NCBI GenBank assembly: GCA_965248535.1
Contig: CBDFJR010000005.1
Location: forward strand, 2,016,001 to 2,080,000
DNA from: Phormidesmis sp.
Lineage (GTDB): Bacteria; Cyanobacteriota; Cyanobacteriia; Leptolyngbyales; Leptolyngbyaceae
Length of the DNA stretch: 64,000 bases
Direction of reading: 5' to 3'
Position numbers and translations under genes: made by a program. Under the pieces are notes generated by a model, which saw nothing but the letters and a program-made list of their open reading frames with translations, was not told the DNA's origin and did no database searches. Of the stretch, positions 13,707 through 62,234 are shown piece after piece. Position 1 is the first letter of the stretch, and the number at the start of each line of letters is the position of its first letter.

Positions 13707-14351
13707 TTGGCTGGCGAACTTTGGCGGCGATCGTATCCCCGCAAAGATTTCTTGTGGCTTTTTGCAATTTGTCGTACCATTCTGGAAACTCTTCCTAACC
13801 CCAATAAAACGGTCTTTGGTGTGATGACCCATCCTGAATCCGTCAATTCTCAGACTGAAATTGACCCAGGCACCCCTCCGCCAATTTCGCCAGAAGTTTC
13901 AGAACCTGAACTGCGCCCTTGGGATGTCGGCGAGGCCGTCGTAGCGCTGCAAGAGTTGCTCAACGCCCACGGGTTTAGGCTCAGAGTAGACGGCGCATTT
14001 AACAGCCGCACCGAAGAAGCCGTCAGAGCTTACCAGTTTAAATATCGGCTGAGATTAGATTGCACCATTGATGCTAAAACCTGGGCGATGTTGAAGAGCA
14101 CTATTCAACCGGGCGCTCGGCTGCTGAGAGAAGGGTTGGCAGGGGCAGATGTCTACGAGCTTCAGGGATTGCTCAACGTCAACGGCTATCGCGTTCAGCG
14201 CCACGGCATTTTTGACGATGAAACGCGCAAGTGCGTTATTGCCTTTCAGCAACGGCACAAGCTGAGGGCAAATGGCAAAGTCGGAACCATTACCTGGACG
14301 CTGCTGCGAGGTAAGCCGCTGCCCCCACCTAAGCAACCCAACTGGGTTTGA
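13707..14351 (+). CDS. Peptidoglycan-binding domain protein (two PG_binding_1 repeats)
   Basis: GEAVVALQELL..DG.F...T..AV..YQ pattern twice; start likely MTHP. Confidence 0.88.
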   Translation: MAGELWRRSYPRKDFLWLFAICRTILETLPNPNKTVFGVMTHPESVNSQTEIDPGTPPPISPEVSEPELRPWDVGEAVVALQELLNAHGFRLRVDGAFNSRTEEAVRAYQFKYRLRLDCTIDAKTWAMLKSTIQPGARLLREGLAGADVYELQGLLNVNGYRVQRHGIFDDETRKCVIAFQQRHKLRANGKVGTITWTLLRGKPLPPPKQPNWV

Positions 14352-14357
14352 AGTCAA

Positions 14358-15848
14358 TCACTTGTCAATAAATACCCAAGCTTCACTCCAATCGTCGGGG
14401 ATGCCTTGCTCGATCAGAGATTCGACTCGTTCTAGATAGAGTTTTGCAGTTTTATCAGCCGGGTGAATGGCTAACACCTGCTCAAAACAAAGTTTGGCAT
14501 CGTTGATATCGCGATCGCGATAGCATTGAACGCCGCGATCGAAGTCAGGCTGAGTTTTTAGCTTCAGCGATCGCACCTCTTCAACTTCTGCATCCAAGAC
14601 TTCATAGACTGAGATTGCCTCATTGCGTCCTTTGACGATCGCCCGATCTAAAAAGCGAATCTGGTAGCGATCGGGGTTGCTGAGATGCTCTAGGGTTTGA
14701 CCCGAAATGATCATGGCAACGCCATAAAACTTGGTCAACCCCTCTAGCCGCGAGGTCAAATTGACGTTATCTGAAAACGCATCGCCCTGAATGCGGTTCG
14801 CTTCGCCGACCATGCCTAACATCATCTGCCCAACGTGAATGCCAATGCCCACCTGCACGGGCAAATTACCCCTCGCTGTGCGCTGCTGGTTATATTCTTG
14901 CACTCGCTTTTGCTTGGCCACTCCTGCGGCCACCGCATCATCGGCCCCATCAGGAAACACCGCCATCATGCCGTCACCCAAAAATTTGACGATGATGCCA
15001 TAGTGATTGCGAATCTCTGGGCTGACCCGCTTGAGGTAGGCATTGACAAAATCAAAATTTTCTCGCGGGGTCATCGTTTCTGACATGGTGGTGAACGATC
15101 GAATGTCGCTAAACATCACCGCCATCATTTTGCTAACATAATCGCCTAACTGCACCTCAGTCACGCTGTCTTTGCGAAGAAATTTGAGATATTCACCCGG
15201 AAAAAATCGCGCAAAAGAGTCATTTAATCGCTTTAATTCCTGTTCGCGAGTTTTCACCGTTTTGACCATTTGAGTAAACACGCGGGCGAGTTGTCCTAGC
15301 TCATCAGGACGATCGACGACATCACTCAAGCTCTCCGCCACAAAGGTGTCTTGCTCAACTGTCACCGCCGCATTGGTCAATTTATCCACCTGTTGAATAT
15401 AGAGCGCCTGGCGCTGGTTTTCGTCGCGCAGCATTGCCTCGGCTTCTTGGCGCTTGAGCAGATTGGTATAGGCTTTGGAGTGATAGCGAATGCGGGCGAG
15501 AAGCTCAACCCGATCGGGCAACTTGACCAGATAATCATTGGCTCCTAGCTCAAACGCTTGAGCTTTGATCACAGGCTCTTCTTTGCTCGACAGCACGATT
15601 AGCGGAATGTGATAGGTGGGGGCATCGTGCGATCGTAAAAACCGCACCAGCAGCAGCCCATCCATCTGGGGCATGACGAGATCTTGCAAAATCACCGTGG
15701 GCTGACACTCTCTAGCGATTTTGAGGGCTTGAGTGGGGTCGCTGCAATAGTGAAAGGTAATATCCGGTTCAGACCCTAGCATTCGCCGCACGGCTTCCCC
15801 GATCATGGATTGATCGTCAATCAGCAACACCGTGATCGCATCGTTCAT
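14358..15848 (-). CDS. WspR-type receiver fused to a class III adenylate cyclase
   Basis: REC (DDQSMIGEAVRR, LQDLVMP, ANDYLVKLPD), HAMP-like DELGQLARVF, cyclase FSDIRSFT/VKFLGDG/GDAFSDNVNLTSRLE, C-terminal TPR-like helices. Confidence 0.9.
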   Translation of the reverse strand: MNDAITVLLIDDQSMIGEAVRRMLGSEPDITFHYCSDPTQALKIARECQPTVILQDLVMPQMDGLLLVRFLRSHDAPTYHIPLIVLSSKEEPVIKAQAFELGANDYLVKLPDRVELLARIRYHSKAYTNLLKRQEAEAMLRDENQRQALYIQQVDKLTNAAVTVEQDTFVAESLSDVVDRPDELGQLARVFTQMVKTVKTREQELKRLNDSFARFFPGEYLKFLRKDSVTEVQLGDYVSKMMAVMFSDIRSFTTMSETMTPRENFDFVNAYLKRVSPEIRNHYGIIVKFLGDGMMAVFPDGADDAVAAGVAKQKRVQEYNQQRTARGNLPVQVGIGIHVGQMMLGMVGEANRIQGDAFSDNVNLTSRLEGLTKFYGVAMIISGQTLEHLSNPDRYQIRFLDRAIVKGRNEAISVYEVLDAEVEEVRSLKLKTQPDFDRGVQCYRDRDINDAKLCFEQVLAIHPADKTAKLYLERVESLIEQGIPDDWSEAWVFIDK

Positions 15849-15873
15849 GGCAAACCCGACAAGAGAATCCCGA

Positions 15874-16911
15874 TTAACGCCTGATGGCGGTGCGGTTTGT
15901 CAGCGTGGCGGCGATCGCTTCTGGGTTCAGCACTTCAACCGCCGCGTTTAGTTCAGCCGCCGCTCTAGGCATCCCATACACCGCGCAGCTTTCTTGGTCT
16001 TGAGCGATCGTGTGCCAGCCCAGATCTCTAAGCGATCGTAGCCCTTCGGCCCCATCTCGCCCCATGCCTGTCAGCAGCACGGCCGTGCCTTGAGTCGCCC
16101 AATAGTGAGCCACACTCTTAAAAAATACGTCGATCGACGGCCGATAGGGATAGTCAACAGGTTCTCTAACATAGTTCAGCGTTTGGTTAGACTGCAAACA
16201 GAGATGATCATTGGTGCAGGCTACCAAAACCACGCCCTTTTGAGGACGATCGCCCACTGCGGCTTTCTTGACGGTGAGGGGTGTTAGTTGATTAAGCCAG
16301 TCCACCATGCCGCCCGCAAACTGAGCATCGACGTGTTGAACGATGACGATCGCGGCTTCTAGATTGGCAGGCAAGCGAGACAAAATAATCGACAGCGCTT
16401 TGGGCCCGCCCGTCGAAGACCCGATCGCGATCAGAGGCAGTGACGATGACGAGGGCAGCGGCACCGTGGGAAGGCGCAGCGGAGTCGATAGCGACGGATT
16501 GGGCTTGCCCGCGATTTTAGCAATCATGGCAATTTTGCCAAGGAGAGCCAGAGCGCCTCCGGGAGTGCCCTGATCGCCCAAAACAGGAGTGTTGACGGCA
16601 TCAAGCGCGCCATAGCCCATCGCCTCAAAGACTTTTGCCGAGTTTTGCTCAATGCTCACCGTCACAATCAAAATCGCGCAGGGTGAGCGTTTCATAATTT
16701 GCCGAGTCGCCTCGACCCCATCCATCACGGGCATGATCAGATCCATCAAAATCAGGTCGGGGGTGTTTTTGGCACATTTGTCTACTGCCTCGGCCCCGTC
16801 TTTGGCGATCCACACAATCTGATGGTCAGCGATCGTCAACACCACTCGTCGCAGCGCCTCGATCGCGATAAACCTATCGTTAACGATTGCGATTTTCATA
16901 TCACTCACCAA
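15874..16911 (-). CDS. cheB: CheB/WspF methylesterase response regulator
   Basis: REC domain plus GSSTGGP, VQH, RPSID and GMGRDG motifs. Confidence 0.95.
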
Positions 16912-18652
16912 TCAAATCCACAACAGCCCGAATTAGCGTATCGTCGTGAAAGCTGCTTTTGGTTAAGTAGTAGTCTGCGCCAGCCTCTAGCCCTTGCACC
17001 CGATCGTCTTCGCGATCGCGATAAGACACCACAATCACCGGAGTCGCCCTCAGTCGAGGATGTTTTTTGATGGCCTTAATCAGTTCAATCCCGTTCATTC
17101 GCGGCATATCAACATCACTGATCACTAAATCATAAGGAGACGATCGTACCGCATTCCAGCCTTCCATTCCATCAACGGCAACGTCAACCAGATAGCCGCG
17201 ATTTTGCAGCAGCTTCCGCTCCATTTCTCGGACGGTGATCGAGTCGTCTACCACCAGCACTCGCCTTGGCTCTTTGCGAGGAGAAGGATTTAGAGTCAGG
17301 CTTTCAGACTGAGTTGCTGCGGACATGACTCTCGCGATCGTGCCCTCGTTGAGGAGAGTATTTGTCGATCGCACTAGATCAGACACATCGACAATCAACA
17401 CCAGCGACCCGTCGCCCATCAGGGCGGCCGCACTAATATCTTGCACTTTGCCGAGTCGAGCATCGAGCGGCCGCACCACCAGTTCTCGTTCTCCGAGGCA
17501 GCGATCGACCACTAGCCCATAGGTGTTGGTCTGATCGCTAATCACCACTACCCAAAGCGGGTCAGACAGCGACGAGGGCGGCGGCAAATCGAGCACTTGA
17601 TGGACAGGGATCAGACCAATATTTTTCTGATCAAGGGTGAAATATTGCCGCGTTTCGACCCCAAAAATCTCCGTAGGTTTAACCGCCACAATTTGATCAA
17701 TGCGCGCCAGAGGAAACGCATAGGACTCGCCCGATATCTCAACGAGCAGAGTCCGCACGACGGAGAGCGTTAGGGGCAGTTGAAAATAAAAGCTCAGTCC
17801 TTTGCCAGGTTGAGAGGTTGCCCGCACGGTGCCGCCCACTTCTTGAGCCATGCTTTGAGCAATGTCTAAACCCACGCCCCGCCCAGAAAGCTCAGTGACT
17901 TGTTTGGCCATTGAGAAGCCGGGGAGAAACAAAAACTCCATCAGTTCGGCTTCGGTTAGCTGGGCGGCGACATCGGGCCCCACTAACTTTTTGTCTACAA
18001 TTTGCTGGCGTAGTTTCATCGGTGCCAGACCTTTGCCATCATCGGCGATCGTGATTGATAACATTCCTCCCCGGTGCATCGCCTCTATGCGAATGGTGCC
18101 TGCGGCAGGTTTTCCGGCGGCGATGCGGTCTTCGGGCAGCTCGATGCCGTGGTCAACGGCGTTTCGCAACATATGGGTGAGGGGAGCTTCTAGCTTTTTG
18201 AGAATGTCGCGATCGACCGACGTAGATTTGCCCAAGATTTCTAGCTTGACTTGTTTTTGAGTCGTGCGGGCGAGATCACGCACCATGCGCGGAAACCCTT
18301 GCACCCCGTCTATAAACGGCCGCATATTGGACGTGATCACTTCTCGATAGAGCCGATCGGAGAGGTTTGCCGATCGCCGAATGAATTCTTCGAGTTCGAT
18401 CAAGCGATCGTTGAGTTGTCTTCGGCATTCTTGATCATGTTGCCGAGTTGCATCCAGCAGCGTTTGCATCGTTTGATCGGCTGAATTCATCAAAGCGTTT
18501 TGCTGCAATTTCTCCAAGTGTTTAGACAGCTTGAGTTGCTGAGATTTGAGCACCCCTAGCGCATCGGCAAACGGCGGCAGCCAATTGGCCTCGATCAGCG
18601 ATTCTCCGGCCAGCCCCATCATGCGATTGAGGTTGTCTGCACTGACTCTCAC
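16901..18652 (-). CDS. CheA/WspE hybrid kinase, C-terminal part (dimerisation, HATPase, CheW, REC)
   Basis: [22 protein letters not shown], CheW domain, C-terminal REC; out of frame with its Hpt part. Confidence 0.9.
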
Positions 18653-19707
18653 TACGCGGTCTTGAGACGCTGCCGAGCACTCAGATCAGCAGGACTTGAC
18701 TCGATCTCAGCCTTGGCTTCATGGGCGATCGCTGTCACAACCGCAGGCATGGGCGCGATCGCTTTGGGTGGCGCGATCGTTGCCTTTGGGTCGCGAATTG
18801 CCTCGATCGTGGCTCCTACTGAGGCAAAGTCTAAGTCATGGGCTGCTAGCCAAGAAGCTAACTCACCATCGCTCACCTGACCAAGATTTTGCAGCAGATC
18901 AACGCCTCGCAGCAGCACATCGACCCGATCGCCATCCAAGTCGATCGTGTGGTTTTGAGCGGCAACAAAGCAGTCTTCCATCGCGTGAGAGAGGTGAACT
19001 GCCGCATCTAAACCCACAATCCGAGCGGCCCCTTTGATCGAGTGAGCAGCGCGCATCAAGGCCTCCAACGCCTGAGCCGATTCGGGCTGAGTCTCCAATG
19101 CCAAAAGACCGTTATTTAAAAGAGCCGCCTGAGACTCAACTTCTAGCCGAAATAACTCCATCATTGAGCTATCTAAGAGCAGCGACGGCGGATTAGGTTT
19201 GGGATCTTCGGGGGGTGAGTCGGGCGTAGCGACTTCCTCCTTAGATGTCTGGAGACTTGAAGCGGTTTCTGCTCGGTCTTGTGGCGGTGGCAAGGTCGGA
19301 CTCTCACCCGCGATCGCGGCCTGCGTCTGAGCCACCTCTTCGGCATGGTCAAAGAGCCAGCGATCAAAGTCATCCCCCGTGGCTTGGCTCATCTTCACAA
19401 GCAGATCTCCGGCGTGGAGCAGCCGATCGATGAGCACGTCAGACAAAACCGTTGAGTCGTGCTGCACGGCCATCAATCTGGCTCTCATGGTCTCAGATAA
19501 GTCAGCGACCGCGTTGATTTCTATTAGCTGCGCCGAGCCAGCGATCGCGTGCAGCGATCGGATCGCCGTATCCAATTCACCGCCCAAAGAGGACTGCTGC
19601 TTTAAAATCGATAGACTCTGCTGAAGAGATTTGACCTGAGTCTCAACTTCTTGACGAAACAGATCCAGCATGGAGTAATCGCGCCTGGGGTCTCCACTGC
19701 TCATCAC
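18652..19707 (-). CDS. CheA/WspE N-terminal part (two Hpt domains)
   Basis: SLHAIAGSA and AAHSIKGAAR Hpt motifs; its TAG overlaps the next ORF's GTG. Confidence 0.88.
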   Translation of the reverse strand: MMSSGDPRRDYSMLDLFRQEVETQVKSLQQSLSILKQQSSLGGELDTAIRSLHAIAGSAQLIEINAVADLSETMRARLMAVQHDSTVLSDVLIDRLLHAGDLLVKMSQATGDDFDRWLFDHAEEVAQTQAAIAGESPTLPPPQDRAETASSLQTSKEEVATPDSPPEDPKPNPPSLLLDSSMMELFRLEVESQAALLNNGLLALETQPESAQALEALMRAAHSIKGAARIVGLDAAVHLSHAMEDCFVAAQNHTIDLDGDRVDVLLRGVDLLQNLGQVSDGELASWLAAHDLDFASVGATIEAIRDPKATIAPPKAIAPMPAVVTAIAHEAKAEIESSPADLSARQRLKTA

Positions 19708-20423
19708 AATAAGCTGCGCTCAAGGGCATAAAACAACAGGTCGGCATCTAGATAATTCACCTTTTTGGTTTGCCAGTCAATAATCCCTTGGGTGTAAGCC
19801 TGACTTGCCTGCGACACCACCACGGGCACCTCTTTTAACTCCTTCTCCTGCACCCGATGAATGCGATGCACTTCATCTACCGGAAACACCCACTTGCGAT
19901 CGTCGTGCCCCACCACCAACATTCGACTCAGCGCCGAGCGATCGTGAGCCGACTCTGCTTCACGGTCTAAGCCCAGCAACTGACTCAACGAGACCGTCAT
20001 CAAAATTTCGCCCCGAATGTTGGTCAGACCTAACAGCACATCGTTGCTGCGGTGGGGCAATCGGTGAATGGCACCGAGACGGGTGACCTCGTTAAGCACT
20101 CCCACAGGCAGCGCAAACTGCTCATCGCCGAGACGAAACAAAATCACAGATAGCGTGTCTTTTGACCCTCTAACGGTGTAGAGAGCGGGGTCACGGTCAG
20201 AAGTCTTGAGTGCCAACTCATCGGATGATGCCGCGATCGCCGCCGTCCACTCGTTGAGATAATCGAGCGGAATCTCTCGCTCTAGTAAACTGCGCCCCAC
20301 GGTGGCATAAACCGGGCAGTTGCGGCAGTGAATCACCGTCTCTAGCTGACTGCACGAGCGATCGCCCTTAACGCCAATTTGATTCCAGCAATCGTTGATC
20401 TCAGCAGACAGACTTGTCAGCAT
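19704..20423 (-). CDS. WspD-type CheW adaptor
   Basis: CWNQIGVKGDRSC..HCRNCPVY N-terminal motif plus CheW domain. Confidence 0.93.
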   Translation of the reverse strand: MLTSLSAEINDCWNQIGVKGDRSCSQLETVIHCRNCPVYATVGRSLLEREIPLDYLNEWTAAIAASSDELALKTSDRDPALYTVRGSKDTLSVILFRLGDEQFALPVGVLNEVTRLGAIHRLPHRSNDVLLGLTNIRGEILMTVSLSQLLGLDREAESAHDRSALSRMLVVGHDDRKWVFPVDEVHRIHRVQEKELKEVPVVVSQASQAYTQGIIDWQTKKVNYLDADLLFYALERSLL

Positions 20424-20429
20424 TGCACA

Positions 20430-22046
20430 TCACACTTTAAATTGAGAAATTTCTCGCTGCAAGCCCTGAGCCGCGTCATCTAACTGAGTCAGCGCATTGT
20501 TGGTTTCTTGCAAAGACTGCACGGTTTGATAAGACGCGTCGCTGAGTTGCCCGATCGCCAAGCTAATCTGCTCTGCCCCGCGATATTGTTCATCCATGCG
20601 CTGGCTGACGGCCGAAAATTGCGGCGTTAACCCCTGCACATTTTGAATAAATCCAGCAATTTGTTGACTAATGTCCCCTACTTCGGTCACATATTGCCCC
20701 ACTTCTTTGCTAAATTTATCGACCTCCATCACGCCCGTAGACACCGATGATTGCATCTCTTTGACCATCTGTTCAATTTCGAGAGTGGCCACGGCTGACT
20801 GATCGGCAAGACGACGAATTTCTCTAGCCACGACTGCAAACCCGGCCCCATATTCTCCGGCTTTTTCGGCCTCGATCGCGGCATTCAGCGATAATAAATT
20901 AGCCTGATCGGCCACTTTAGTAATCGTAGTCACGACCGTGTTGATATTATTCGCTTTCTCATCCACCACCGTTAACTTTGATGAGATTAAATTTGTCGCC
21001 AGCACTAAATTTTGCATGGCTGACTGCATTTTATTGAGATTGGTTTGGCTGTTGGCGGCCGATTCTGTCGTGGTGTGGGCCGTTGCCGCTACGCCATCCA
21101 TTGATTTTGCTAACTCGCCTGCCGTTGACGCAATTTGTCGAGATGTTGCATTCACCTCGTGCATGGAGGCCACTTGTTCATTGACGGTCGCTTCAAGCTG
21201 TCTGCCCGCCGCCGCGATCTGAGTCGTAGACGTGCTGATCTGAATGCCAGATTTTTGGGCCTGAGTGATCAAAGCACTCAAATTTTTGGTCATGTTGTGA
21301 AACGACCTCATTAGTTGCCCCAATTCAGTATTGGTTTGAGTGTCTGTGATCGACTGCGTTAAATCGCCATCGGCAACCTGTTGCGCCACTTTTGAAACCT
21401 GACTCAGCGGCTGTGTGATCTGGCGATTGAGAATCACACCAATTAATGCTAAGAGAAAAATTCCGATCGGCATTCCATATAAAACGCTGTCTAGCGTGCG
21501 CCGGGCCGAACTCTCTGCAACCTGCGATCGCTTCTGCAACAAATCGCTCTCTCCGTCCTTCATGCGAGACACGGTATCACGGATCTGATCCATCAGTCGC
21601 TTGCCCTCACCGCTTTGCACCACTTTTAGCGCTGCATCCGATCGATTGGCTTGTTTAAGTCGAATGGTGCTGTCAAGCTCCGTCAGTTTTTGGTTAGCCA
21701 GAGAATCTAGGGTCTGAACATAGCCCTGCTGAGTGGGGTTATCTTGGACTAATTGCTTGAATTGCTCAAGTTTTTGTTGAATCGCCGATCGGGCTTTGTT
21801 GTAGGGGGTGAGATAGCGGGAATCGTTGGTCAACAAATAGCCGCGCTGCCCCGTTTCGGCATCTTTGACCAGCGAAAGAATCTCTTCGGCTTGACTCAAC
21901 ACTTCATAGGTGTGCTTTTCGTCACGAGACGTTGAGATAAATTGCTCGGTGCCGCGATAAGAGATAATGCCGATCGTGGTAAAGATTGCCAACCCCAACG
22001 CAAAACCCGCAGTAATTTTAGTCCTAATTTTCCAGCGATTTAACAT
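20430..22046 (-). CDS. WspA-type methyl-accepting chemoreceptor with CHASE3 sensor
   Basis: Two TMs, AETGQRGYLLT (CHASE3), HAMP, LLSLNAAIEAEKAGEYGAGFAVVAREIRRLA. Confidence 0.95.
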   Translation of the reverse strand: MLNRWKIRTKITAGFALGLAIFTTIGIISYRGTEQFISTSRDEKHTYEVLSQAEEILSLVKDAETGQRGYLLTNDSRYLTPYNKARSAIQQKLEQFKQLVQDNPTQQGYVQTLDSLANQKLTELDSTIRLKQANRSDAALKVVQSGEGKRLMDQIRDTVSRMKDGESDLLQKRSQVAESSARRTLDSVLYGMPIGIFLLALIGVILNRQITQPLSQVSKVAQQVADGDLTQSITDTQTNTELGQLMRSFHNMTKNLSALITQAQKSGIQISTSTTQIAAAGRQLEATVNEQVASMHEVNATSRQIASTAGELAKSMDGVAATAHTTTESAANSQTNLNKMQSAMQNLVLATNLISSKLTVVDEKANNINTVVTTITKVADQANLLSLNAAIEAEKAGEYGAGFAVVAREIRRLADQSAVATLEIEQMVKEMQSSVSTGVMEVDKFSKEVGQYVTEVGDISQQIAGFIQNVQGLTPQFSAVSQRMDEQYRGAEQISLAIGQLSDASYQTVQSLQETNNALTQLDDAAQGLQREISQFKV

Positions 22047-22116
22047 ATGCCCAGCTTACCAAGACTCACTTCTAGAGTAGCGTAGCAACGCCCGCGATCC
22101 TTCAGGCTGATCAAGG

Positions 22117-23283
22117 TCAAGCGTCTAACAACCGTTGAATGCGCTGTTTTAAAATCGCTGACCCTGCCCGATCGCCCTTCTGCTCTTTTAACAATGCCAG
22201 ATGAGTCATCGCTTTATAGGCGTTGGGGTTGAGATAGATGGCCTTTTGAAACGCCTGTTCTGCTGGCTCTGGCTGATCTAGCGCTTGATAAATCTCACCC
22301 AACAGCAGATAAGCCCGATCGTCGGTTGAATGAGTCGTTAGATAAGAGTTGCACAGGGCGATCGCGTCTCTAAGCTGCCCCCGATCGGCAAGGTGTTGAA
22401 TCGTTTCAAGCTTCAGCATGGGTTGAGAAGGAATGGATTTAACAACGGGAGCGGGAATCGCAGTGGGCACGATCGTAGGCAATCGGCGCTCTGCATGACG
22501 AGGCTCTTTGCGATAGCTAAACGCAAACGGATGGCGAATCGGGATGAAGTGGGGAGCGGTAACTTGGGCGGTTTCGGCTGCGCCCACAAACAGCAAACCT
22601 GAAGGCGCTAACGCTTGATCTAGCTGCTCAATCACCCGATGGCGAGAAGCCCGATCGAGATAGATCAAAAGATTGCGGCAGAAAATAGCCTGATAGTTTC
22701 CCTGAGCCAAACGCACAGAATTGAGCAAATTTCCCTGCATGAAGTTGACCGTATTGCGAACAAACGGACGAATTTCGTGGCCAGTTTCAACAGGTTCAAA
22801 ATAGCGCGATTGAGCCGTCACGTTGCCCCGAAAGGACTGTTTGCCATAAATTCCGCCTTTGGCTTTGAGCAAGGCGCGCTGACTAATATCAACAGCATCG
22901 ACTTTAAACTGAGCCGGGGTCAATCCAGCGTTGAACAGCGTCATGGCGATCGAATAGGGTTCTTCGCCCGTTGAGCAAGGCGCACTCAAAACCCGAAACA
23001 CGCCAGCCGGGTGAGCCGATCGCCACTCGGTGACAAACTGATGCAAATAAACAAAGGGTTCACGATCGCGAAAAAACCAGGTTTCGGGCACCACCACCGT
23101 TTCGATCAGGGTATCCATTTCTTTAGGTGATGACTGCAAGTGCGCGAGATAAGCGGCCCGATCGGGCAATCCACATCCCAATCTGCGGCGATCAACAGCG
23201 TGAGCGATCGTGTTAGACCCAATGCTGCTGGCATCTAAGCCAATTTTTTGTCTCAGCAGCCCCTCAATTGTGTCTTGCACCAT
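22117..23283 (-). CDS. WspC-type CheR methyltransferase with TPR
   Basis: VVPETWFFRD, PCSTGEEPYS and IFCRNLLIY motifs; C-terminal TPR. Confidence 0.95.
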   Translation of the reverse strand: MVQDTIEGLLRQKIGLDASSIGSNTIAHAVDRRRLGCGLPDRAAYLAHLQSSPKEMDTLIETVVVPETWFFRDREPFVYLHQFVTEWRSAHPAGVFRVLSAPCSTGEEPYSIAMTLFNAGLTPAQFKVDAVDISQRALLKAKGGIYGKQSFRGNVTAQSRYFEPVETGHEIRPFVRNTVNFMQGNLLNSVRLAQGNYQAIFCRNLLIYLDRASRHRVIEQLDQALAPSGLLFVGAAETAQVTAPHFIPIRHPFAFSYRKEPRHAERRLPTIVPTAIPAPVVKSIPSQPMLKLETIQHLADRGQLRDAIALCNSYLTTHSTDDRAYLLLGEIYQALDQPEPAEQAFQKAIYLNPNAYKAMTHLALLKEQKGDRAGSAILKQRIQRLLDA

Positions 23284-23286
23284 GCC

Positions 23287-23739
23287 CTAAGCGCCCCCAA
23301 TAAACAGCCGTGTAGATTGGGCCTCCGCCACTAGAGGCTGCCAATAAATCTGTTGAATCATGCCTTTTTCATCCATGAATAGATTGCCTAAATAGGGCAC
23401 GTCGTTAGTCGAAGTCACGTCTGTTGAGTCTAAGTCAGGTCTGCTCAGGGTTTCAGTCACCCGCTCTGCCATCAGCCCCAGAGGATAGTTTTTGCCATCC
23501 GGCGTAGTGTGATGAACCATCATCACACGAGTGCTCAATCGTGGACGACAATCGGTGCCGTTCAATAATCGACATAGATCAATCATCGGAACTAAACGAC
23601 CGCGATAATTAAAAATACCCGCTACATAAATGGGAACATGATCAACTTTTCGGGGTGTCACCATCGGGATCACCTCCACTACGTGAGTGCTATCGAGAGC
23701 ATAGAGATTATCGCCAGCGTAAAATAGCAACATCAGCAT
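23287..23739 (-). CDS. WspB-type CheW adaptor
   Basis: AGIFNYRGRLVPMIDL, RLSTR and LGLMAERVTET motifs. Confidence 0.93.
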   Translation of the reverse strand: MLMLLFYAGDNLYALDSTHVVEVIPMVTPRKVDHVPIYVAGIFNYRGRLVPMIDLCRLLNGTDCRPRLSTRVMMVHHTTPDGKNYPLGLMAERVTETLSRPDLDSTDVTSTNDVPYLGNLFMDEKGMIQQIYWQPLVAEAQSTRLFIGGA

Positions 23740-23856
23740 GGAATTAACCGATCAAGGGTCTGATATCGCGTCATGGATGCCTCAAGATAGTGACCTACGA
23801 TCGCTCACTTAACATCCGTCTAGGGTCAGAAAGATCAGTGGCTGGCACAGTCTGAT

Positions 23857-23950: not shown

Positions 23951-25414
23951 CTAAATGCCAAAGATAGACTGAATGCGTTTACGAATGTGATCAAAAGAGG
24001 TTTCTTCTTTGGTGGTTGTGCCGATCGTAATGCCTAAACTTTTTAAGACTTCTTGGCGACGAGATAGTTCTTCAGCAATCTTGTCAGCTAAACCTTGATG
24101 ATTGGTTAACAGCGTTTGCAAATTGCTGTGATCGACCACAAATAAAATGGTTTCTTCTAAAGTTCGCAAGGTGGCAGTGCGCGGCATCCCCATCAGCAGC
24201 GACATTTCCCCGATAAACTCACCCGCTCGACGCACGGCAACTTGTTTGTCAATCGACTCTACAAAAACCTCCACTGAGCCAGACAAAATGATATAAAACG
24301 CATCGCCGGGGTCGCCTTCTCGACAGATCGTTTCGGCGATCGTCAGTTTTTTGCGATAGCCTTGCTCAATCACCTGCCGTAGCTCAATTTCACCACACTG
24401 CTGAAAATAGCTGACCTTTCGCAGCAGATCGCGCAGCATCCAGCCCCCGATCGGCTTTTCGGTCTCTTCCAAGTCACCTGCTTTGGCAGCAACCCCGCTT
24501 GTCTGAGCAGTTTGCAGCCAATGAGCCAGTGCGGGCAGATTCTCGATCGTCAGACTAGCAGATGTGGTTTGATCGATGGCCCGATCGCGAAACTCTGCCT
24601 CGATCAAAAACCGCAGGGCACTTTTAATGGAATCCATCTCGATCGGGTCACGAATCCACACCATCAGGTCAAAGGTGAGCGCGTCTGCTGCAATGCCTTT
24701 GAAATAAACCTCTGGTGAAGGAGACGGCAAAACCCGTGGCTCTTGACGGGCCGCCGTTAGCAGCGCTTCTAGCACAGTGAGCGAGTCGCTCTCTTCGTCC
24801 ACCCGCACCGGAATCTCAATCCGACATTTAGGGTCGCGATAGCTCCAGTTCACCACATTATTGTCGAGAAAACGGCTGTTGGGCACAATCACAAACACCC
24901 CATTCACCGTGCGAATCGTGGTGGATCGGATAGCAATTTCTTCGACTGTGCCCGCGAGTTGATCGACTTCAATATAGTCACCCACTTTGATCGGTTGCCC
25001 AAACAGCAGCGTCAGACCACTGATAAAATTACTCGACAAATTTTGTAGCCCGATGCCCACCCCAAGCCCGATCGCCCCCGCAAACACGGCCAAAGAACTA
25101 AGATTGATGCCAGCCGCCTCTAATACGATCAGAAACCCAATCACCGTAATGATGTAGCTGGTAATCGTTGAGAGAGACTCTCGTGTACCGAGTTCTAATT
25201 TGAATCGTGGTAAAACTCGCTCTTTTAGAATTTGTTTGATCGTGTTTGCTAAAACTAAAACAAGCGTTGATTGAATAACGAGTTCAGCAATCGATCCCAG
25301 AGAAAACTTTTCTCCTGCAAACGTGAATAGACTATTACTAAAAGCATTGATAAAGTCCTGAAAAAACTGCTTAGTTTGAATATTTACCCAGTCTAAAGCT
25401 GATTGCAGTTCCAT
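23951..25414 (-). CDS. MscS-family channel with C-terminal cyclic-nucleotide-binding domain
   Basis: GLGVGIGLQN..NFISG, GDYIEV and VPNS (MscS); EGDPGDAFYIILSG..GEMSLL..PRTAT (cNMP). Confidence 0.93.
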   Translation of the reverse strand: MELQSALDWVNIQTKQFFQDFINAFSNSLFTFAGEKFSLGSIAELVIQSTLVLVLANTIKQILKERVLPRFKLELGTRESLSTITSYIITVIGFLIVLEAAGINLSSLAVFAGAIGLGVGIGLQNLSSNFISGLTLLFGQPIKVGDYIEVDQLAGTVEEIAIRSTTIRTVNGVFVIVPNSRFLDNNVVNWSYRDPKCRIEIPVRVDEESDSLTVLEALLTAARQEPRVLPSPSPEVYFKGIAADALTFDLMVWIRDPIEMDSIKSALRFLIEAEFRDRAIDQTTSASLTIENLPALAHWLQTAQTSGVAAKAGDLEETEKPIGGWMLRDLLRKVSYFQQCGEIELRQVIEQGYRKKLTIAETICREGDPGDAFYIILSGSVEVFVESIDKQVAVRRAGEFIGEMSLLMGMPRTATLRTLEETILFVVDHSNLQTLLTNHQGLADKIAEELSRRQEVLKSLGITIGTTTKEETSFDHIRKRIQSIFGI

Positions 25415-25779: not shown

Positions 25780-28700
25780 ATGAAAGCTCTCTTTCAAGCT
25801 CTAGCTGAAGACTCAGAGCAAATTTTGCTACCTAATTTTCAGGCTGATGGGGATGTGCGATTCCAAACTGTTAGGACTGTTAAACCTCAGATGCTAGTCA
25901 TCATTGATGCAGGGGTTGCAGACTACAAAAGTCTAGCAATGGGTGTTGTTGATGGAGCGATCGCCCTAGTCCTTGATCCCAATCGAGATGGGGTTGAACA
26001 GATTACCGAGGCATTACACTGCTATAGCCCAATTACCCGTTTGCATCTGATCTCCCATGGCTCTCCTAGCTGTATTTATTTGGGCAATAGTCAACTTAGC
26101 CTGCTCACGATCGCTGACTACGCTCCTTTGCTGCAACGCTGGTCTTCCTATCTCAAGAGCCAAATTTTGATCTACGGCTGCGATGTGGCGGCTGGCGATG
26201 CAGGCCGTGAGTTCATTGAGCAGTTGCAGCAGTTGACGGGGGTCGCGATCGCCGCTTCAACCACGCGGATTGGCAGCGCCACCCAGGGCGGTAGCTGGCG
26301 ATTCGACATAACAACCGATCGAGGCGACGTTTCTCCCTGTTTTCAGGATGAAGTCATGAGGGCCTACCCAGCCGCGTTTGCAGCAGGCGATTTAGATACC
26401 AGCTTTGGTAACAATGGCATTGTTGCTGGGCTTGCGGGCGCTGGCGCTGGGCTTGGGCTACAGCCAGACGGCAAACTGTTAGTCACCTCCACAATTCCGG
26501 GTAGCAGCAGTTCCTTCACTCTCAGCCGCTACAACAGCAACGGTAGCCTAGATACTAGCTTTGGCAGCAGTGGCAGAGTGACAGGGTTTAACAATTCTGG
26601 TGAGGATATTCTCATCCAGCCTGACGGCAAAATCATTGTGGCGGGAGACACCCCAGCAACGATTCCATCCTATCCTTCTGGTGCTACATCTTTTTCGGTC
26701 ACTCGCTACAACATTGACGGTAGCCTGGATACTGGTTTTGGCACTAACGGCACCACAGTTAACCATGTGGGCACGGTTCACAACGACCAACTCAGCGCGG
26801 TGCTTCAGCCAGACGGCAAGATTTTACTAGGAGGATATTCGTTCTATACGGGTAGTGATAGCCAGGGTCTTTTAGTTCGCTATAACAGCAACGGCAGTCT
26901 AGATAGCAGCTTTGGTAATAGTGCTCTGCCGGGCGTATCCACAGCATTAATCACCAACGAGCAGAGTTATGGCTTTAGCGTTGCGCTTCAATCTGATGGT
27001 CAGATCATCCTGGCAGGAGCCTCGACGGTCAATCCGCAAATCTCACCGTCGCTGGCGCTCTGGAAATTTAGCCCAACTGGAAGTTTGATTGGCAGCACTA
27101 AAACAGCCTTCACTTCGTTGACCAACTACCAGGTCTTTGCCCCTTCTAACATCCCTCAAGTGGCTGTACAAGCTGATGGCAAGATTGTGGTTGCAGAAGA
27201 TATGTTGTACAACCAACCCTATCAATCTCCCATTCGATACTCCTTTGCCCGATTTAACAGCGACCTTACCCTCGATACTAGCTTCGGGACTGGTGGGGGT
27301 GCAGGCGGTTATTTCCAGGGGAGTAGTTTCCCCTCCTCTGACATAGCACTGAACTACAACAGCCTTGCGCTTCAGCCGGATGGCAAGATCGTTACTGCTG
27401 GCAGACGAGATCAGAATGGAGTCGGCAGTTTCATTGTGGAGCGTCATGGCAGCAACGGTGCTCTAGACAGCAGTTTTGGGGCAGGCGGGGGAGTTTTGAC
27501 CAATTTTGGCAACGGCAACGCCAGTGCTTCAAATTTGGTCATTCAGCCTGATGGTAAGGTGGTTGCTACAGGAACCGCAAACGGCAGTTTTACCCTAGTG
27601 CGCTACGTTGGAGTCAGCAGTGGGGTTAACCAGGCTCCTACCGACATCAGCCTAAGCAATACTAATCTCTTCCCATTCCAAATCCCACAGCCAGGAGCTT
27701 TTCTGATTGGCAACTTCTCAACGGTTGACCCTGATGTTAGCGATCGCCACTCCTACAGACTGGTATCAGGTGTTGGGGATACCGATAATGGCTTGTTCTT
27801 AATTCAAGGAGGGAATGGATTTTACCTGGCACCCAATACAAGCACCACGCAAAAGCAAACTTACAGCATTCGGGTTCGCAGCGATGATGGTCGAGACGGC
27901 ACCTTTGAGAAGTCGATTATTCTCAGCACTGGGAATCTAGCACCCGTGGCTAGCACCCCGATCGGTGACAAAGCTGTGACGATCGGCTCTCTCTTCAGTC
28001 TTTCCGTCGCCACGACGTTTACTGATCCCAATCCTGGAGATACCTTCACCCTCAACGCCTCCCTCAGCAATGGCAACCCGCTACCTAGTTGGCTCAGTTT
28101 CAACCCTGCTACGGGTCTTTTTAGTGGCACGCCCAGCAGCAGTGATGCGGGTACTCAGTTAATTCTGTTAAGGGCAACTGATCGGGCAGGAGCTTTCAGC
28201 ACCACCAACTTCAACCTGACCGTTAATGGTACAGTTAGCAATCAAGCCCCGACCAACCTGAGTTTGAGCAGCACCAGCATTGCTGAAAATCTGCCAGCTA
28301 ACTCGGTGGTAGGCACATTTACCACGACTGACCCCAATCCCGGCGATACGTTCACTTACTCCTTGGTTGCAGGCATAGGCAGCACCCATAACGCAGCCTT
28401 CAAGATTGTTGGCAATACGCTACGCACAACCCAAGCCTTTGATTTTGAGGCACAATCTACCTACAGTGTTCGAGTTCGCACAGATGATGGCAAGGGCGGA
28501 GTTTTAGAGCGAGTGCTTGCAGTGAATGTTCAGGATGGTAATGATGCCCCGATCGTGGCGACTCCTTTAACCAATCGAACAGCAACTGTTAGCAAAGCAT
28601 TCCGCTATGTAGTGCCCACCAATACCTTCTTTGATCAGGATGTTGCCGCGAATAGTGACCTAGATTGGCTCACTTTAAGTGCAACGTTGAGTGATAGTAG

Positions 28701-28854
28701 ACCGTTACCGAGTTGGCTCCGTTTTAATGCCAACACTGGCACCTTTAGCGGCACTCCTAAGAGTGGTAATGTGGGCAATCTTAACATTGTGGTGAAAGCT
28801 ACTGATGTGCTTGGGGCTTCAGTAAGCTCTAGTTTCATCCTCTCGGTTCAATAG
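25780..28854 (+). CDS. Large surface adhesin-like protein: DUF4347, delta-60 repeats, cadherin/putative Ig domains
   Basis: HLISHGSP..LG and IYGCDVAAG (DUF4347); repeated QPDGKI..LDTSFG; NQAPTDISLS and LPSWL.FN..TG.FSGTP. Confidence 0.88.
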   Translation: MKALFQALAEDSEQILLPNFQADGDVRFQTVRTVKPQMLVIIDAGVADYKSLAMGVVDGAIALVLDPNRDGVEQITEALHCYSPITRLHLISHGSPSCIYLGNSQLSLLTIADYAPLLQRWSSYLKSQILIYGCDVAAGDAGREFIEQLQQLTGVAIAASTTRIGSATQGGSWRFDITTDRGDVSPCFQDEVMRAYPAAFAAGDLDTSFGNNGIVAGLAGAGAGLGLQPDGKLLVTSTIPGSSSSFTLSRYNSNGSLDTSFGSSGRVTGFNNSGEDILIQPDGKIIVAGDTPATIPSYPSGATSFSVTRYNIDGSLDTGFGTNGTTVNHVGTVHNDQLSAVLQPDGKILLGGYSFYTGSDSQGLLVRYNSNGSLDSSFGNSALPGVSTALITNEQSYGFSVALQSDGQIILAGASTVNPQISPSLALWKFSPTGSLIGSTKTAFTSLTNYQVFAPSNIPQVAVQADGKIVVAEDMLYNQPYQSPIRYSFARFNSDLTLDTSFGTGGGAGGYFQGSSFPSSDIALNYNSLALQPDGKIVTAGRRDQNGVGSFIVERHGSNGALDSSFGAGGGVLTNFGNGNASASNLVIQPDGKVVATGTANGSFTLVRYVGVSSGVNQAPTDISLSNTNLFPFQIPQPGAFLIGNFSTVDPDVSDRHSYRLVSGVGDTDNGLFLIQGGNGFYLAPNTSTTQKQTYSIRVRSDDGRDGTFEKSIILSTGNLAPVASTPIGDKAVTIGSLFSLSVATTFTDPNPGDTFTLNASLSNGNPLPSWLSFNPATGLFSGTPSSSDAGTQLILLRATDRAGAFSTTNFNLTVNGTVSNQAPTNLSLSSTSIAENLPANSVVGTFTTTDPNPGDTFTYSLVAGIGSTHNAAFKIVGNTLRTTQAFDFEAQSTYSVRVRTDDGKGGVLERVLAVNVQDGNDAPIVATPLTNRTATVSKAFRYVVPTNTFFDQDVAANSDLDWLTLSATLSDSRPLPSWLRFNANTGTFSGTPKSGNVGNLNIVVKATDVLGASVSSSFILSVQ

Positions 28855-59271: not shown

Positions 59272-59777
59272 CTTGAGTCTGAAATAATGACAATGAGTTT
59301 GCTTGACTTGACCTTGCTAACTTGCTTTCAGAAACTTTTCCTGACTCAATGTTAGCCGTTTGACTCATATTACACTGATGCTGTGATTTTTTTACATCCG
59401 ATTTTTCAGAAACTTGCCAAGTCAATCGAGACAGATTTCAAGACACTTCAATGCTCATTTTTTAAATCAGAGGCTTGCAGAGAAATCTAGTGAATAATGG
59501 GGTTTTCTATCGATGATGCGCGTCGGGTTACATTTCTTCAAACCCACTCTGTTGATCAATTAGCAATTTGATCTTTGTCATTGAATGCAGCCTAGAGAAT
59601 TCAACTAATAAGATTTGACTAATGGAAACCATGAGCTTTTTGCGAGTGTTTATTGCACTGGGTTGAAGACAACTATTGGCCATTTGCGCGCGGGTTGCTT
59701 GAGAATCTAACGTTCAGAAAACAAAACCCAGCGATCGTATCTGCTGGGCGAGTTAGGGGATTAAAAGACCTATCCAA

Positions 59778-59895
59778 TAAAAAAGAGCGGGAAGACTGGA
59801 TCGGCTCGACTCCACCCTATCGGTTGAGCGCCACAATTGCGGGCATTCAGATAGGGTGACGTGGGACGGATCACAGCAATCAACTCGCTCTTACC
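59778..59895. ncRNA. Unassigned long hairpin RNA candidate
   Basis: Nested stems AAGAGCGGG/CTCGCTCTT, GATC/GATC, CACCCTATC/GATAGGGTG and TGAGCGCC/GGCATTCA. Confidence 0.5.
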
Positions 59896-60138
59896 ATTCA
59901 TTCACCTGTGGTCACAGCGTAGCGAGCAGGCTTGTCAATTCCATGTTTCAGGCGTGAACTTGCAATGACGGTTAAATCGACTCAGAAATGGGGAGCAAAT
60001 TGACTGGGGTGAGCGTCAACAGCCTCGATCGGGGTGAGGTTCATGGCGGTGTGATGCGATCGCTACCCGATTGTCATAAAAACCGTCTAGAGTCGAGCTA
60101 CTAAATTTATGTTTAATAGTAAGGAGAGTTAAAACTTA

Positions 60139-61398
60139 ATGAAGATGCCCCACGATTCAGATCCTCATTCACCTAATCAACCCCGCAGATTTTCTTGGAA
60201 GCAGCCCGCGATCTATCTAATGCTGCCGATCGTGGGAGCCGGAGCCGCTTTAATGGGCGATCGTTGGCTAGCGTCATCAAACCCGATGCCTGCGGTGCAG
60301 CCTGCTCTGGCTCAAGCTGCTGAGATGCAAGTGGCTCAGAGCCGCACGGGGGCTATTGTTTCGGCTACAGACCCTAACTTTATCGCGGCAGCCGTTGAGC
60401 GAGTCGGCCCCGCTGTCGTGCGGATCAATTCGTCTCGGACGGTTAAAACTCAGATTCCGCCCATTTTTAATGATCCCTTTTTCCGGCAATTTTTTGGCTC
60501 AGAGTTGCCCGATACCCCGTCTACTAGAGTGGAGCGCGGCACAGGCTCAGGCTTTATTATTGGGGAAGGGTTAATTTTAACCAACTCCCATGTGGTGAAT
60601 GGCGCAGATACCGTATCGGTCAAACTCAAAGATGGGCGAGAGTTTCAGGGCAAGGTGTTGGGTCAAGACCCAGTGACAGATGTAGCGGTGGTCAAAATTC
60701 AGGCGACTAATCTGCCCGTGGTGACTTTAGGAAACTCCGATCAACTGCGTCCGGGAGAGTGGGCGATCGCCATTGGCAATCCACTAGGGTTAGATAACAC
60801 GGTCACCGCTGGAATCATTAGCGCCACAGGTCGCACCAGTGCTGAGGTGCGCGTTCCTGACAAGCGGGTGAGCTTTATTCAAACCGATGCGGCGATCAAC
60901 CCTGGCAATTCTGGTGGGCCGTTATTAAACCAGCGCGGTGAAGTGATTGGGATGAACACTGCGATTATTGGGGGCGGTGCTCAGGGGCTGGGGTTTGCGA
61001 TTCCGATCAATACGGCTCAAAAGATTTCGCAGCAGTTGATTGCCACCGGAAAAGTGAATCATCCCTATTTGGGAATTCGGATGACGACGCTGACTCCTGA
61101 GCTAAGAAAACAGGTAAACAGCGATCGAGAAGCCAATCTCACCGTGCAGGACGATCGCGGCATCTTGATCTACAGCGTCATGAAAAATTCTCCGGCGGCG
61201 CGGGCTGGGCTGCGGGCTGGCGATGTGATTAAGAAGGTCAACGGTCAAGCGGTCGAGACAGCCGACCAAGTGCAAAATGCGGTAGAAGCCAGTTCTATAG
61301 GCGGATCACTGCAAGTAGATGTGAGTCGCAACGGTCGATCGACGACGATCGCAGTGCAGCCCGGCGCGTTTCCGACTCAGACGGCTCAAAGTGAATAA
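60139..61398 (+). CDS. HtrA/HhoA/HhoB serine protease with PDZ domain
   Basis: GTGSGFI, TNSHVV and AAINPGNSGGPL motifs; PDZ domain. Confidence 0.96.
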   Translation: MKMPHDSDPHSPNQPRRFSWKQPAIYLMLPIVGAGAALMGDRWLASSNPMPAVQPALAQAAEMQVAQSRTGAIVSATDPNFIAAAVERVGPAVVRINSSRTVKTQIPPIFNDPFFRQFFGSELPDTPSTRVERGTGSGFIIGEGLILTNSHVVNGADTVSVKLKDGREFQGKVLGQDPVTDVAVVKIQATNLPVVTLGNSDQLRPGEWAIAIGNPLGLDNTVTAGIISATGRTSAEVRVPDKRVSFIQTDAAINPGNSGGPLLNQRGEVIGMNTAIIGGGAQGLGFAIPINTAQKISQQLIATGKVNHPYLGIRMTTLTPELRKQVNSDREANLTVQDDRGILIYSVMKNSPAARAGLRAGDVIKKVNGQAVETADQVQNAVEASSIGGSLQVDVSRNGRSTTIAVQPGAFPTQTAQSE

Positions 61399-61495
61399 GG
61401 GGCATCCCTAGAATCGGCACTGCCCTAGATCCACGTCAGGGCGGTGTCGTGTCTATGGTTTTTGTCTGCCACCACTAGGATTTAGTCTACGTTCT

Positions 61496-62113
61496 TTAGA
61501 CGGTGGGCACCGCGTAGTAAATAATGGCGAGAAATTGAATCGGTAGCTCAATCAGCCTTTCGGGGCCGTGAGGCACCTCTCCTCGAAAGCTTAAAGAATC
61601 GCCTGGCTCTAACAAATAGGTGTGAATTCCGTGACGGTATTCTAGTTTGCCTTGCAGCAGGTAAAGAAACTCAATGCCGGGATGCTCAAACGTCGGAAAC
61701 ACCTCAGACGCATCATCCATGGTGATCAAAAACGGCTCAAATAACTTCGTTGGGCCCTGATCGTAGGCCAACAAATGATAAGTGTGTCCGCGTTTTGTGC
61801 CGCGTCTGACGACTTCCATGCCCTCGCCCTGCTTGACCAACTGCGCGCCGCCTGCTGGCATATTGTAGTTACGAAACAGCGTTGATAGAGACACCCCTAA
61901 CGCCGTGGCCAACCTCCCGATCGTGTCTAAGCTGGTCGCAGTTTGAGCATTTTCAATTTTGGACAACATGCCGCGAGAGATGCTTACCTGTTCGGCGACT
62001 TCAGCGATCGTCAAGCCATGTTTTTGTCGCAGACCTCGAATGGCGTTGCCTAAATATCGCTCTAAAGAGTTACTAGAAAGGGCTTCTGTGCTTTTTGCTG
62101 GAGCTTCTGTCAT
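61496..62113 (-). CDS. XRE-family HTH-cupin transcriptional regulator
   Basis: HTH (LTIAEVAEQVSISRGMLSKIEN) plus cupin (HPGIEF..L.PGDS..F.GEVPHG); divergent from the sox/mgd genes. Confidence 0.92.
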   Translation of the reverse strand: MTEAPAKSTEALSSNSLERYLGNAIRGLRQKHGLTIAEVAEQVSISRGMLSKIENAQTATSLDTIGRLATALGVSLSTLFRNYNMPAGGAQLVKQGEGMEVVRRGTKRGHTYHLLAYDQGPTKLFEPFLITMDDASEVFPTFEHPGIEFLYLLQGKLEYRHGIHTYLLEPGDSLSFRGEVPHGPERLIELPIQFLAIIYYAVPTV

Positions 62114-62155
62114 GATAATTTTTCTCGATCGCCTTGCTTAATGTGAATCATAGCA

Positions 62156-62211
62156 AGAAACTTTGTTGACAACTATGAAACTTCGATCCATGATGGTTAC
62201 CAAAGTTTTCT
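62156..62211 (+). promoter_or_regulatory. Sigma70-type promoter with repeated operator-like motifs
   Basis: TTGACA(62166)-17 nt-CATGAT(62189); GAAACTT at 62157 and 62177, inverted CAAAGTTTTCT at 62201. Confidence 0.6.
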
Positions 62212-62234
62212 GGTGAAGACTTGCAGGAGTTGTC

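Follow-up and report, generated by a model that had tools for sequence, protein, structure and literature searches.

Here we report on a 64,000-nucleotide (nt) stretch of DNA from the filamentous cyanobacterium Phormidesmis sp. (the window: positions 2,016,001 to 2,080,000 of contig CBDFJR010000005.1, assembly GCA_965248535.1), in which a Wsp-type chemosensory operon ends in a gene for a WspR-type receiver fused to a class III nucleotide cyclase. We think it likely that this last protein, the output protein, converts receptor signals into cyclic AMP (cAMP) along the pathway that an earlier note on the sequence had proposed. The evidence lies in the gene content and order, the type of receiver, the conserved catalytic residues and the linkage of such cyclases to wsp genes across cyanobacteria.

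Seven co-oriented genes on the minus strand occupy 14358-23739 in the order wspB-C-A-D-E-F followed by the output gene, with spacings that range from overlaps to 70 nt. Open reading frames (ORFs) together with Pfam and NCBIfam matches bear out the operon that the earlier note had read from the letters, with its terminal receiver-cyclase, and all motifs quoted there were found. The parts of a Wsp operon are present: a chemoreceptor (MCP), two CheW, CheR-TPR, CheA-REC and REC-CheB. The cluster also has the marks of an ACF-class pathway as we took them from the available part of a 2012 survey (Munoz-Martinez et al.; PMC3447774), namely CheR-TPR and a multidomain response regulator with no stand-alone CheY in the cluster. 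A Pfam scan found no GGDEF domain in the output protein or anywhere in the cluster. Three features were absent from the earlier note: a frameshift in wspE, the helix and HAMP-like segment and TPR-like tail of the output protein, and an upstream gene for an MscS-like channel with a cyclic-nucleotide-binding (cNMP-binding) domain. The features are as follows (aa, amino acids).

23951..25414, minus strand: MscS-like channel gene with cNMP-binding domain (Pfam MS_channel 1st/2nd/3rd and cNMP_binding)
23287..23739, minus strand: wspB-like CheW adaptor, 150 aa (Pfam CheW, E 1.9e-18)
22117..23283, minus strand: wspC-like CheR methyltransferase with C-terminal TPR, 388 aa (Pfam CheR, E 8e-42; TPR_1 over cut-off)
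20430..22046, minus strand: wspA-like chemoreceptor, CHASE3-HAMP-MCPsignal, 538 aa (Pfam CHASE3, E 9.5e-45; HAMP; MCPsignal)
19704..20423, minus strand: wspD-like CheW adaptor, 239 aa (Pfam CheW, E 1.6e-25)
18652..19707, minus strand: 5´ part of wspE with two Hpt domains, 351-aa frame (Pfam Hpt, 2 stretches)
18673..18681, no strand: frameshift in the wspE linker (2-nt difference from contigs of three other runs)
16901..18652, minus strand: 3´ part of wspE, dimerisation/HATPase/CheW/receiver, 583 aa (Pfam HATPase_c, CheW and Response_reg over cut-off; H-kinase_dim under cut-off)
15874..16911, minus strand: wspF-like REC-CheB methylesterase, 345 aa (NCBIfam PRK12555, 462.8 bits, cut-off 342)
14358..15848, minus strand: output protein, 496 aa, with WspR-type receiver, helical stalk and HAMP-like segment, class III cyclase and TPR-like tail
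15486..15830, minus strand: receiver domain, aa 7-121, with D11, D12, phosphoacceptor D56, S87 and K109 (alignment; best PDB matches 3bre and 3i5a)
15210..15485, minus strand: stalk helix and HAMP-like segment, aa 122-213 (model helices; Pfam HAMP 20.1 bits, cut-off 25)
14598..15140, minus strand: class III cyclase domain, aa 237-417, with D248, K288, D292, D356, N363, R367 and K406 (alignment, model)
14406..14582, minus strand: three-helix TPR-like tail, aa 423-481 (model helices)

By sequence, the receiver of the output protein is of WspR type. Residues 2-150 score 173 and 166 bits against two WspR structures (P. aeruginosa and P. syringae), and 66 against the next receiver, PleD. The five phosphorylation-site residues D11, D12, D56, S87 and K109 are never substituted in 63 aligned rows, made up of the window protein and 62 relatives, with 0-2 gaps per site. 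A single Wsp cluster and a single WspR-type receiver are found in the genome, where no other receiver is more than 37% identical to the latter. A tree built from 108 receivers sets the WspR-type group (in which P0247 was checked as a WspR orthologue) apart from 25 other receivers of the genome (SH-aLRT 97), although the monophyly is partly by construction, since ingroup members were chosen for their similarity to the query receiver. The WspR-like receiver of the earlier note is thus upheld by sequence matches and by phylogeny, the latter suggested in that note, and also by fold: a search with a structure model of the output protein (mean pLDDT 85.7, pTM 0.56) places the WspR structures at the top, followed by OaPAC, CyaB (3r5g, root-mean-square deviation [rmsd] 1.8 Å) and Cya2. 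The output protein is probably the target of the kinase WspE because it bears the only WspR-type receiver of the genome.

The cyclase domain is well marked (Pfam PF00211, 68 bits, cut-off 21.9) and contains the full class III set: two metal Asp (D248, D292), the adenine-specifying Lys and Asp (K288, D356) and the transition-state residues N363 and R367. These and K406 are never substituted in the same 63 rows (0-1 gaps), which agrees with the earlier note and extends it to 62 relatives. K288 aligns with the Lys of CyaB and OaPAC and with a Glu of the guanylyl cyclase Cya2, and D356 (QGDAF) with the adenine-reading Thr of CyaB and OaPAC; K288, D356 and their partners are what we take to be the ATP-selecting set by established class III rules. 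Because this ATP-type catalytic set is complete, the output protein likely makes cAMP instead of cyclic di-GMP (c-di-GMP). The cyclase domain is also the best-conserved part of the cluster, being 97% identical to that of P. priestleyi BC1401 vs 63-84% for the other Wsp proteins.

The model shows the receiver, the cyclase fold and three C-terminal helices, with further helices at 113-165, 171-178 and 183-213, so arranged that the receiver runs into the linker as a single unbroken helix. The helix pattern of the middle segment is compatible with HAMP and the relative P0006 carries PF00672; on sequence, "HAMP-like" is as far as the label can be taken, since the Pfam score of the segment itself lies under the cut-off. 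Pfam made no TPR call on the tail of the output protein, and TPR_2 was recorded for the relative P0066. A 617-aa variant of the protein has a PAS domain between the HAMP-like segment and the cyclase (L055:10001-11854, P0012-P0018).

Receiver-cyclases of this kind are common in cyanobacteria, as emerged from a survey for wsp clusters with such an ending that the earlier note had proposed. A genome scan gave 334 stretches encoding relatives, of which 79 loci (numbered L) were kept, from Leptolyngbya, Nostoc, Calothrix, Anabaena, Moorena, Oscillatoria and others; the nearest named cyclase relatives are those of P. priestleyi ULC007 (96%) and BC1401 (92%). For 55 of the 62 receiver-cyclase ORFs, wspF lies in the same locus, and among the seven others two have wspF fragments at the contig edge and two are found less than 1.4 kb from where a contig begins. 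When the phylum was sampled evenly, a WspR-type receiver turned up in 31 of 401 genomes, Phormidesmis included. Thirty-eight genomes, 31 picked for the receiver and 7 congeners, were examined for a WspE-type kinase, and all have one. The 31 genomes gave 32 receiver matches, two of which had no locus. The 29 examined besides that of Phormidesmis carry the cyclase of the Phormidesmis type (7), a different class III cyclase (6), SpoIIE/PP2C (7) or a histidine kinase (9, two of them cut at the locus end) on the receiver, and GGDEF in none of the 29. The second cyclase is unrelated (about 355 aa, KTIGD/YDLWGD motifs, Pfam >218 bits) and ends Wsp clusters in six sampled genomes (L095-L097, L099, L100, L102). 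The best 120 receiver matches in a large protein set comprise 84 cyclases, 35 SpoIIE proteins, one fragment and no GGDEF protein. Beyond these, 76 of 150 representative matches, being longer proteins with a single receiver, were scanned and gave kinase (20), cyclase (12), GGDEF (11), SpoIIE (6), HD (3), TIR (1), PAS (1) and nothing further (22). Judged from these domain combinations, the WspR-type receiver is a platform for many outputs. In the receiver-SpoIIE clusters L085, L090 and L092-L094, wspF follows the regulator instead of preceding it, and P0170 has the receiver fused to TIR_2, a possible NAD-cleaving or signalling output.

How the cyclase came to its place was approached with an output-history tree of 41 rows and 127 columns. 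Eight proteins of the Phormidesmis type group with three cyanobacterial receiver-SpoIIE proteins (95/92), inside further SpoIIE rows, and a constraint joining the Phormidesmis-type cyclases with the GGDEF rows was rejected (approximately unbiased test, p-AU 0.004). A single acquisition of cyclases in cyanobacteria was likewise rejected (joining both cyclase types in the receiver tree, p-AU 0.002). The groups were defined with the first tree already in view and the columns number only 127, so these results are to be taken as indications. The likeliest history on this sequence evidence is that cyclases were acquired at least twice, and that the Phormidesmis type replaced a phosphatase rather than a GGDEF domain. 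The direct GGDEF-to-cyclase swap envisaged in the earlier note finds no support here, as the lineage nests among receiver-PP2C proteins and its nearest receivers carry PP2C. A derivation of the HAMP-like segment from dCache-HAMP cyclases was rejected too, with 12/33 identical residues and no similarity match; only cyclase and tail are common to the two.

From these elements we infer a mechanism that leads from a periplasmic signal through a phosphorelay to cyclase activation. The signal would be received by the CHASE3 receptor WspA. WspE would then autophosphorylate on H222, and both WspF and the output protein (on D56) would receive the phosphate. The phosphorylated receiver dimer would rearrange, and the stalk and HAMP-like helices would bring two cyclase domains into the active state, phosphorylation being probably activating rather than inhibitory. 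Adaptation would be adjusted through methylation, by WspC and WspF. Targets of the cAMP would be the cyclic-nucleotide-binding proteins of the genome, in which 13 cNMP-binding domain matches lie over the cut-off, and possibly the neighbouring MscS-like channel. By analogy, a role in motility or aggregation is plausible because Spirulina responds to added cAMP with increased gliding and mat formation, according to the part of a review available to us (PMC4284465). The nature of the stimulus is another matter. The earlier note spoke of the same sensing machine as in Pseudomonas, a description that does not hold, since the sensor domain of WspA differs among relatives (22 of 44 scanned: CHASE3 in 5, 4HB_MCP_1 in 11, sCache in 1, uncalled in 5), and surface or envelope sensing therefore cannot be assumed. 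A second CHASE3-type region, in another gene (G000:C5:2411127-2411894), shares 47% identity with residues 1-256 of WspA, so that on sequence the sensor may be shared with another receptor.

Several points weigh against this reading. The HAMP call lies under the Pfam cut-off and the domain arrangement of the model is uncertain, as its pTM indicates. S359, invariant in the family, stands in place of the Gly that precedes the catalytic helix in CyaB and OaPAC. The genome encodes four other class III cyclases, and the share of the Wsp pathway in cellular cAMP may thus be small. Three loci (L018, L019 and L051) carry the gene without any wsp gene in 3-10 kb upstream, and wspE is broken in the genome as assembled. 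One alternative is that the enzyme is an adenylate cyclase of the operon that phosphorylation switches off or barely affects, the linker and the TPR-like tail taking their main input from another partner. A unit of HAMP-like segment, cyclase and tail does exist without the receiver (L067, L074, L079; 50-52% identical over aa 112-496), and cyclase and tail are found behind dCache or CHASE2 sensors (72-77% identity to cyanobacterial and 47-53% to other fused cyclases), so that the module can be controlled otherwise. Set against this are the five invariant phosphorylation-site residues and the unbroken receiver-linker helix of the model, and we regard the alternative as rather unlikely. That WspE signals mainly to an unlinked receiver-GGDEF protein, and that the pathway still controls c-di-GMP, is the line followed for BC1401 in the part of Chrismas et al. 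(2016; PMC4971617) available to us, where two REC-GGDEF proteins with 38-39% identity to WspR are named. Phormidesmis sp. does have eight GGDEF domains, but the WspR-type receiver shares at most 37% identity with any other receiver of its genome, and the 25 placed in the tree all fall outside the WspR-type clade, which makes this outcome very unlikely. Least probable of all, and likewise very unlikely by our estimate, is a guanylate or dual-specificity cyclase: Cya2 (2w01) is by a narrow margin the best sequence match among solved cyclases, but the Glu of Cya2 is replaced by Lys in the output protein, whose second base-reading residue is Asp.

The remaining alternative concerns the kinase. A break near 18673-18681 leaves wspE in two frames, one of 351 aa with the two Hpt domains and one of 583 aa with the kinase, CheW and REC domains, and if the frameshift were real the pathway would be decaying in this strain or would run on a split kinase. 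The stop overlaps a GTG start exactly where the dimerisation domain begins, an arrangement that could allow a two-piece kinase, and 3 of 45 other loci holding both parts are also split, wspE being one ORF in the other 42. Against this, contigs from runs X1, X2 and X3, which come from three near-identical populations, each lack 2 nt within 18673-18681 and are in frame (X4 does not cover the site); the open frame is longer in all 7 congeners (782-1005 aa vs 594); and the assembly breaks the frame of 10 of 174 orthologues, carB included, that were taken from a 400-kb portion of a congener. The same grounds speak against a programmed or natural split of wspE, and a genuine lesion or split kinase seems to us quite improbable. 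The frameshift is most likely an assembly indel, and as it is most likely a sequencing error, the pathway is probably intact in the organism. Other split genes in the assembly should be treated as likely assembly indels as well; one example lies at 59531-62759 (assembly G000, on C2 or C5). The second Hpt of WspE is canonical (HSIKG), with H222 in 41/41 aligned rows, and the first is degenerate, with H53 in 33/41. In this extra N-terminal Hpt of cyanobacterial WspE, the Lys after the His is never present and is often replaced by Trp.

Co-oriented with the cluster and 211 nt upstream of it lies the MscS-cNMP gene, which by its Pfam domains has the architecture of a bCNG channel as defined in PMC13591265, a source that, in the part available, describes the physiological role of these channels as not understood. 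The gene adjoins wspB in 12 of the 33 loci with room to see, in tandem in nine (Phormidesmis, Leptolyngbya, Chlorogloea and kin) and divergently in three Moorena loci, which have a CHASE2-cyclase on its far side; in two further Moorena loci it lies directly downstream of the receiver-cyclase. In 4 of 7 other sampled genomes with the same cyclase type no MscS-cNMP match at E 1e-40 was found, and in 30 genomes outside the genus, many of them fragmented assemblies, no such gene lies near wspE on the same contig. The idea of an obligatory part was rejected on these counts, and the channel is best seen, from its position and domains, as a candidate local effector and not as a core part. One intriguing possibility is that the Phormidesmis-Leptolyngbya cluster forms a self-contained module of receptor, phosphorelay, cAMP and a co-encoded cAMP-gated MscS-like (bCNG) channel as effector. 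Such a module would provide bCNG channels with their first physiological role, and through it a chemosensory array would act directly on ion or solute flux in cyanobacteria that form mats and crusts. Most other clusters ending in a cyclase have no MscS-cNMP gene, however, and we hold the module to be unlikely.

At the other end, a convergent gene with two PG_binding_1 domains (13707-14351) ends 6 nt from the cyclase stop, which makes the cyclase the last gene of the cluster; among the 79 loci the convergent gene is kept beside the cluster in L010 only. Contigs of all four runs compared have 40 extra letters at 23831-23836, in the interval between the channel gene and wspB. Divergent from the cluster, 25780-28854 encodes a 1024-aa protein with DUF4347, DUF5122 beta-propeller, He_PIG and cadherin domains, likely a surface protein. 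Scans for promoters (9 found vs 10.3 expected) and terminators (12 vs 12.9) stayed at chance.

The arrangement itself is not new. In the part of the paper available to us, Chrismas et al. (2016; PMC4971617) describe on contig Ga0079976_1038 of BC1401, our locus L003, a cyclic-nucleotide-binding gene, wspB-C-A-D-E-F and a class 3 adenylate cyclase at the position of WspR, the same remark as in the note; WspR was sought there among unlinked GGDEF proteins and the regulator was left open. One REC-mononucleotidyl cyclase is moreover listed in Table S2 of PMC3447774. The gene arrangement is thus already published and common in cyanobacteria, and as output swapping is established in Wsp and ACF systems, a specialist will not be very surprised. 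What can be added is that the regulator left open in 2016 can now be named, the cyclase itself bearing the only WspR-type receiver of the genome. In the literature searched, which lacked most subscription journals, we found no experimental study of a Wsp-linked receiver-cyclase; wsp has 0 occurrences in PMC10581220, and PMC8396549 has nothing on a Wsp-cyclase system. If the enzyme is controlled by phosphorylation, it would provide a direct link from a chemoreceptor array to cAMP, of which that literature gave no experimental example, and in organisms whose gliding and mat formation respond to cAMP. With at least four different outputs on the WspR-type receiver, cyclases twice among them, cyanobacteria offer a ready-made series in which to compare how a single receiver controls enzymes of unrelated kinds.

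Among known systems, the Wsp-like cassette of BC1401 is the closest, an orthologous locus with the same gene order and a 92% identical output protein. Its wspE is intact and that of Phormidesmis sp. is frameshifted as assembled; the section on BC1401 in PMC4971617, as far as available, does not remark on the WspR-type receiver of the cyclase, does not call the upstream gene a channel and reports no experiments. ACF-class pathways with CheR-TPR likewise use multidomain response regulators with varied outputs, mononucleotidyl cyclases included, which the accessible part of the 2012 survey (PMC3447774) lists without mechanism or test. The Wsp H-system of Burkholderia cenocepacia (Kessler et al. 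2021; PMC8552884) is a precedent for a WspR-type receiver with another output and no c-di-GMP: in the part of that paper available, output swapping in Wsp is established through WspH, a histidine kinase whose receiver has about 70% similarity to that of WspR and which is argued to be phosphorylated by WspE likewise. The paper deals with beta- and gammaproteobacteria, and cyanobacteria and adenylate cyclases have 0 occurrences in it. Pseudomonas Wsp shares with Phormidesmis the component list, including CheR-TPR, CheA-REC and REC-CheB, and a closely related receiver; its output is GGDEF, whereas Phormidesmis has a HAMP-like linker followed by a class III cyclase. The gene order also differs, being A-B-C-D-E-F-R in Pseudomonas and B-C-A-D-E-F in Phormidesmis, where WspE has two Hpt domains and the sensor is CHASE3. 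Finally, the Pil-Chp chemosensory system of P. aeruginosa controls cAMP via a class III cyclase, CyaB, which is a separate membrane enzyme without a receiver; unlike CyaB, the Phormidesmis cyclase is itself the response regulator.

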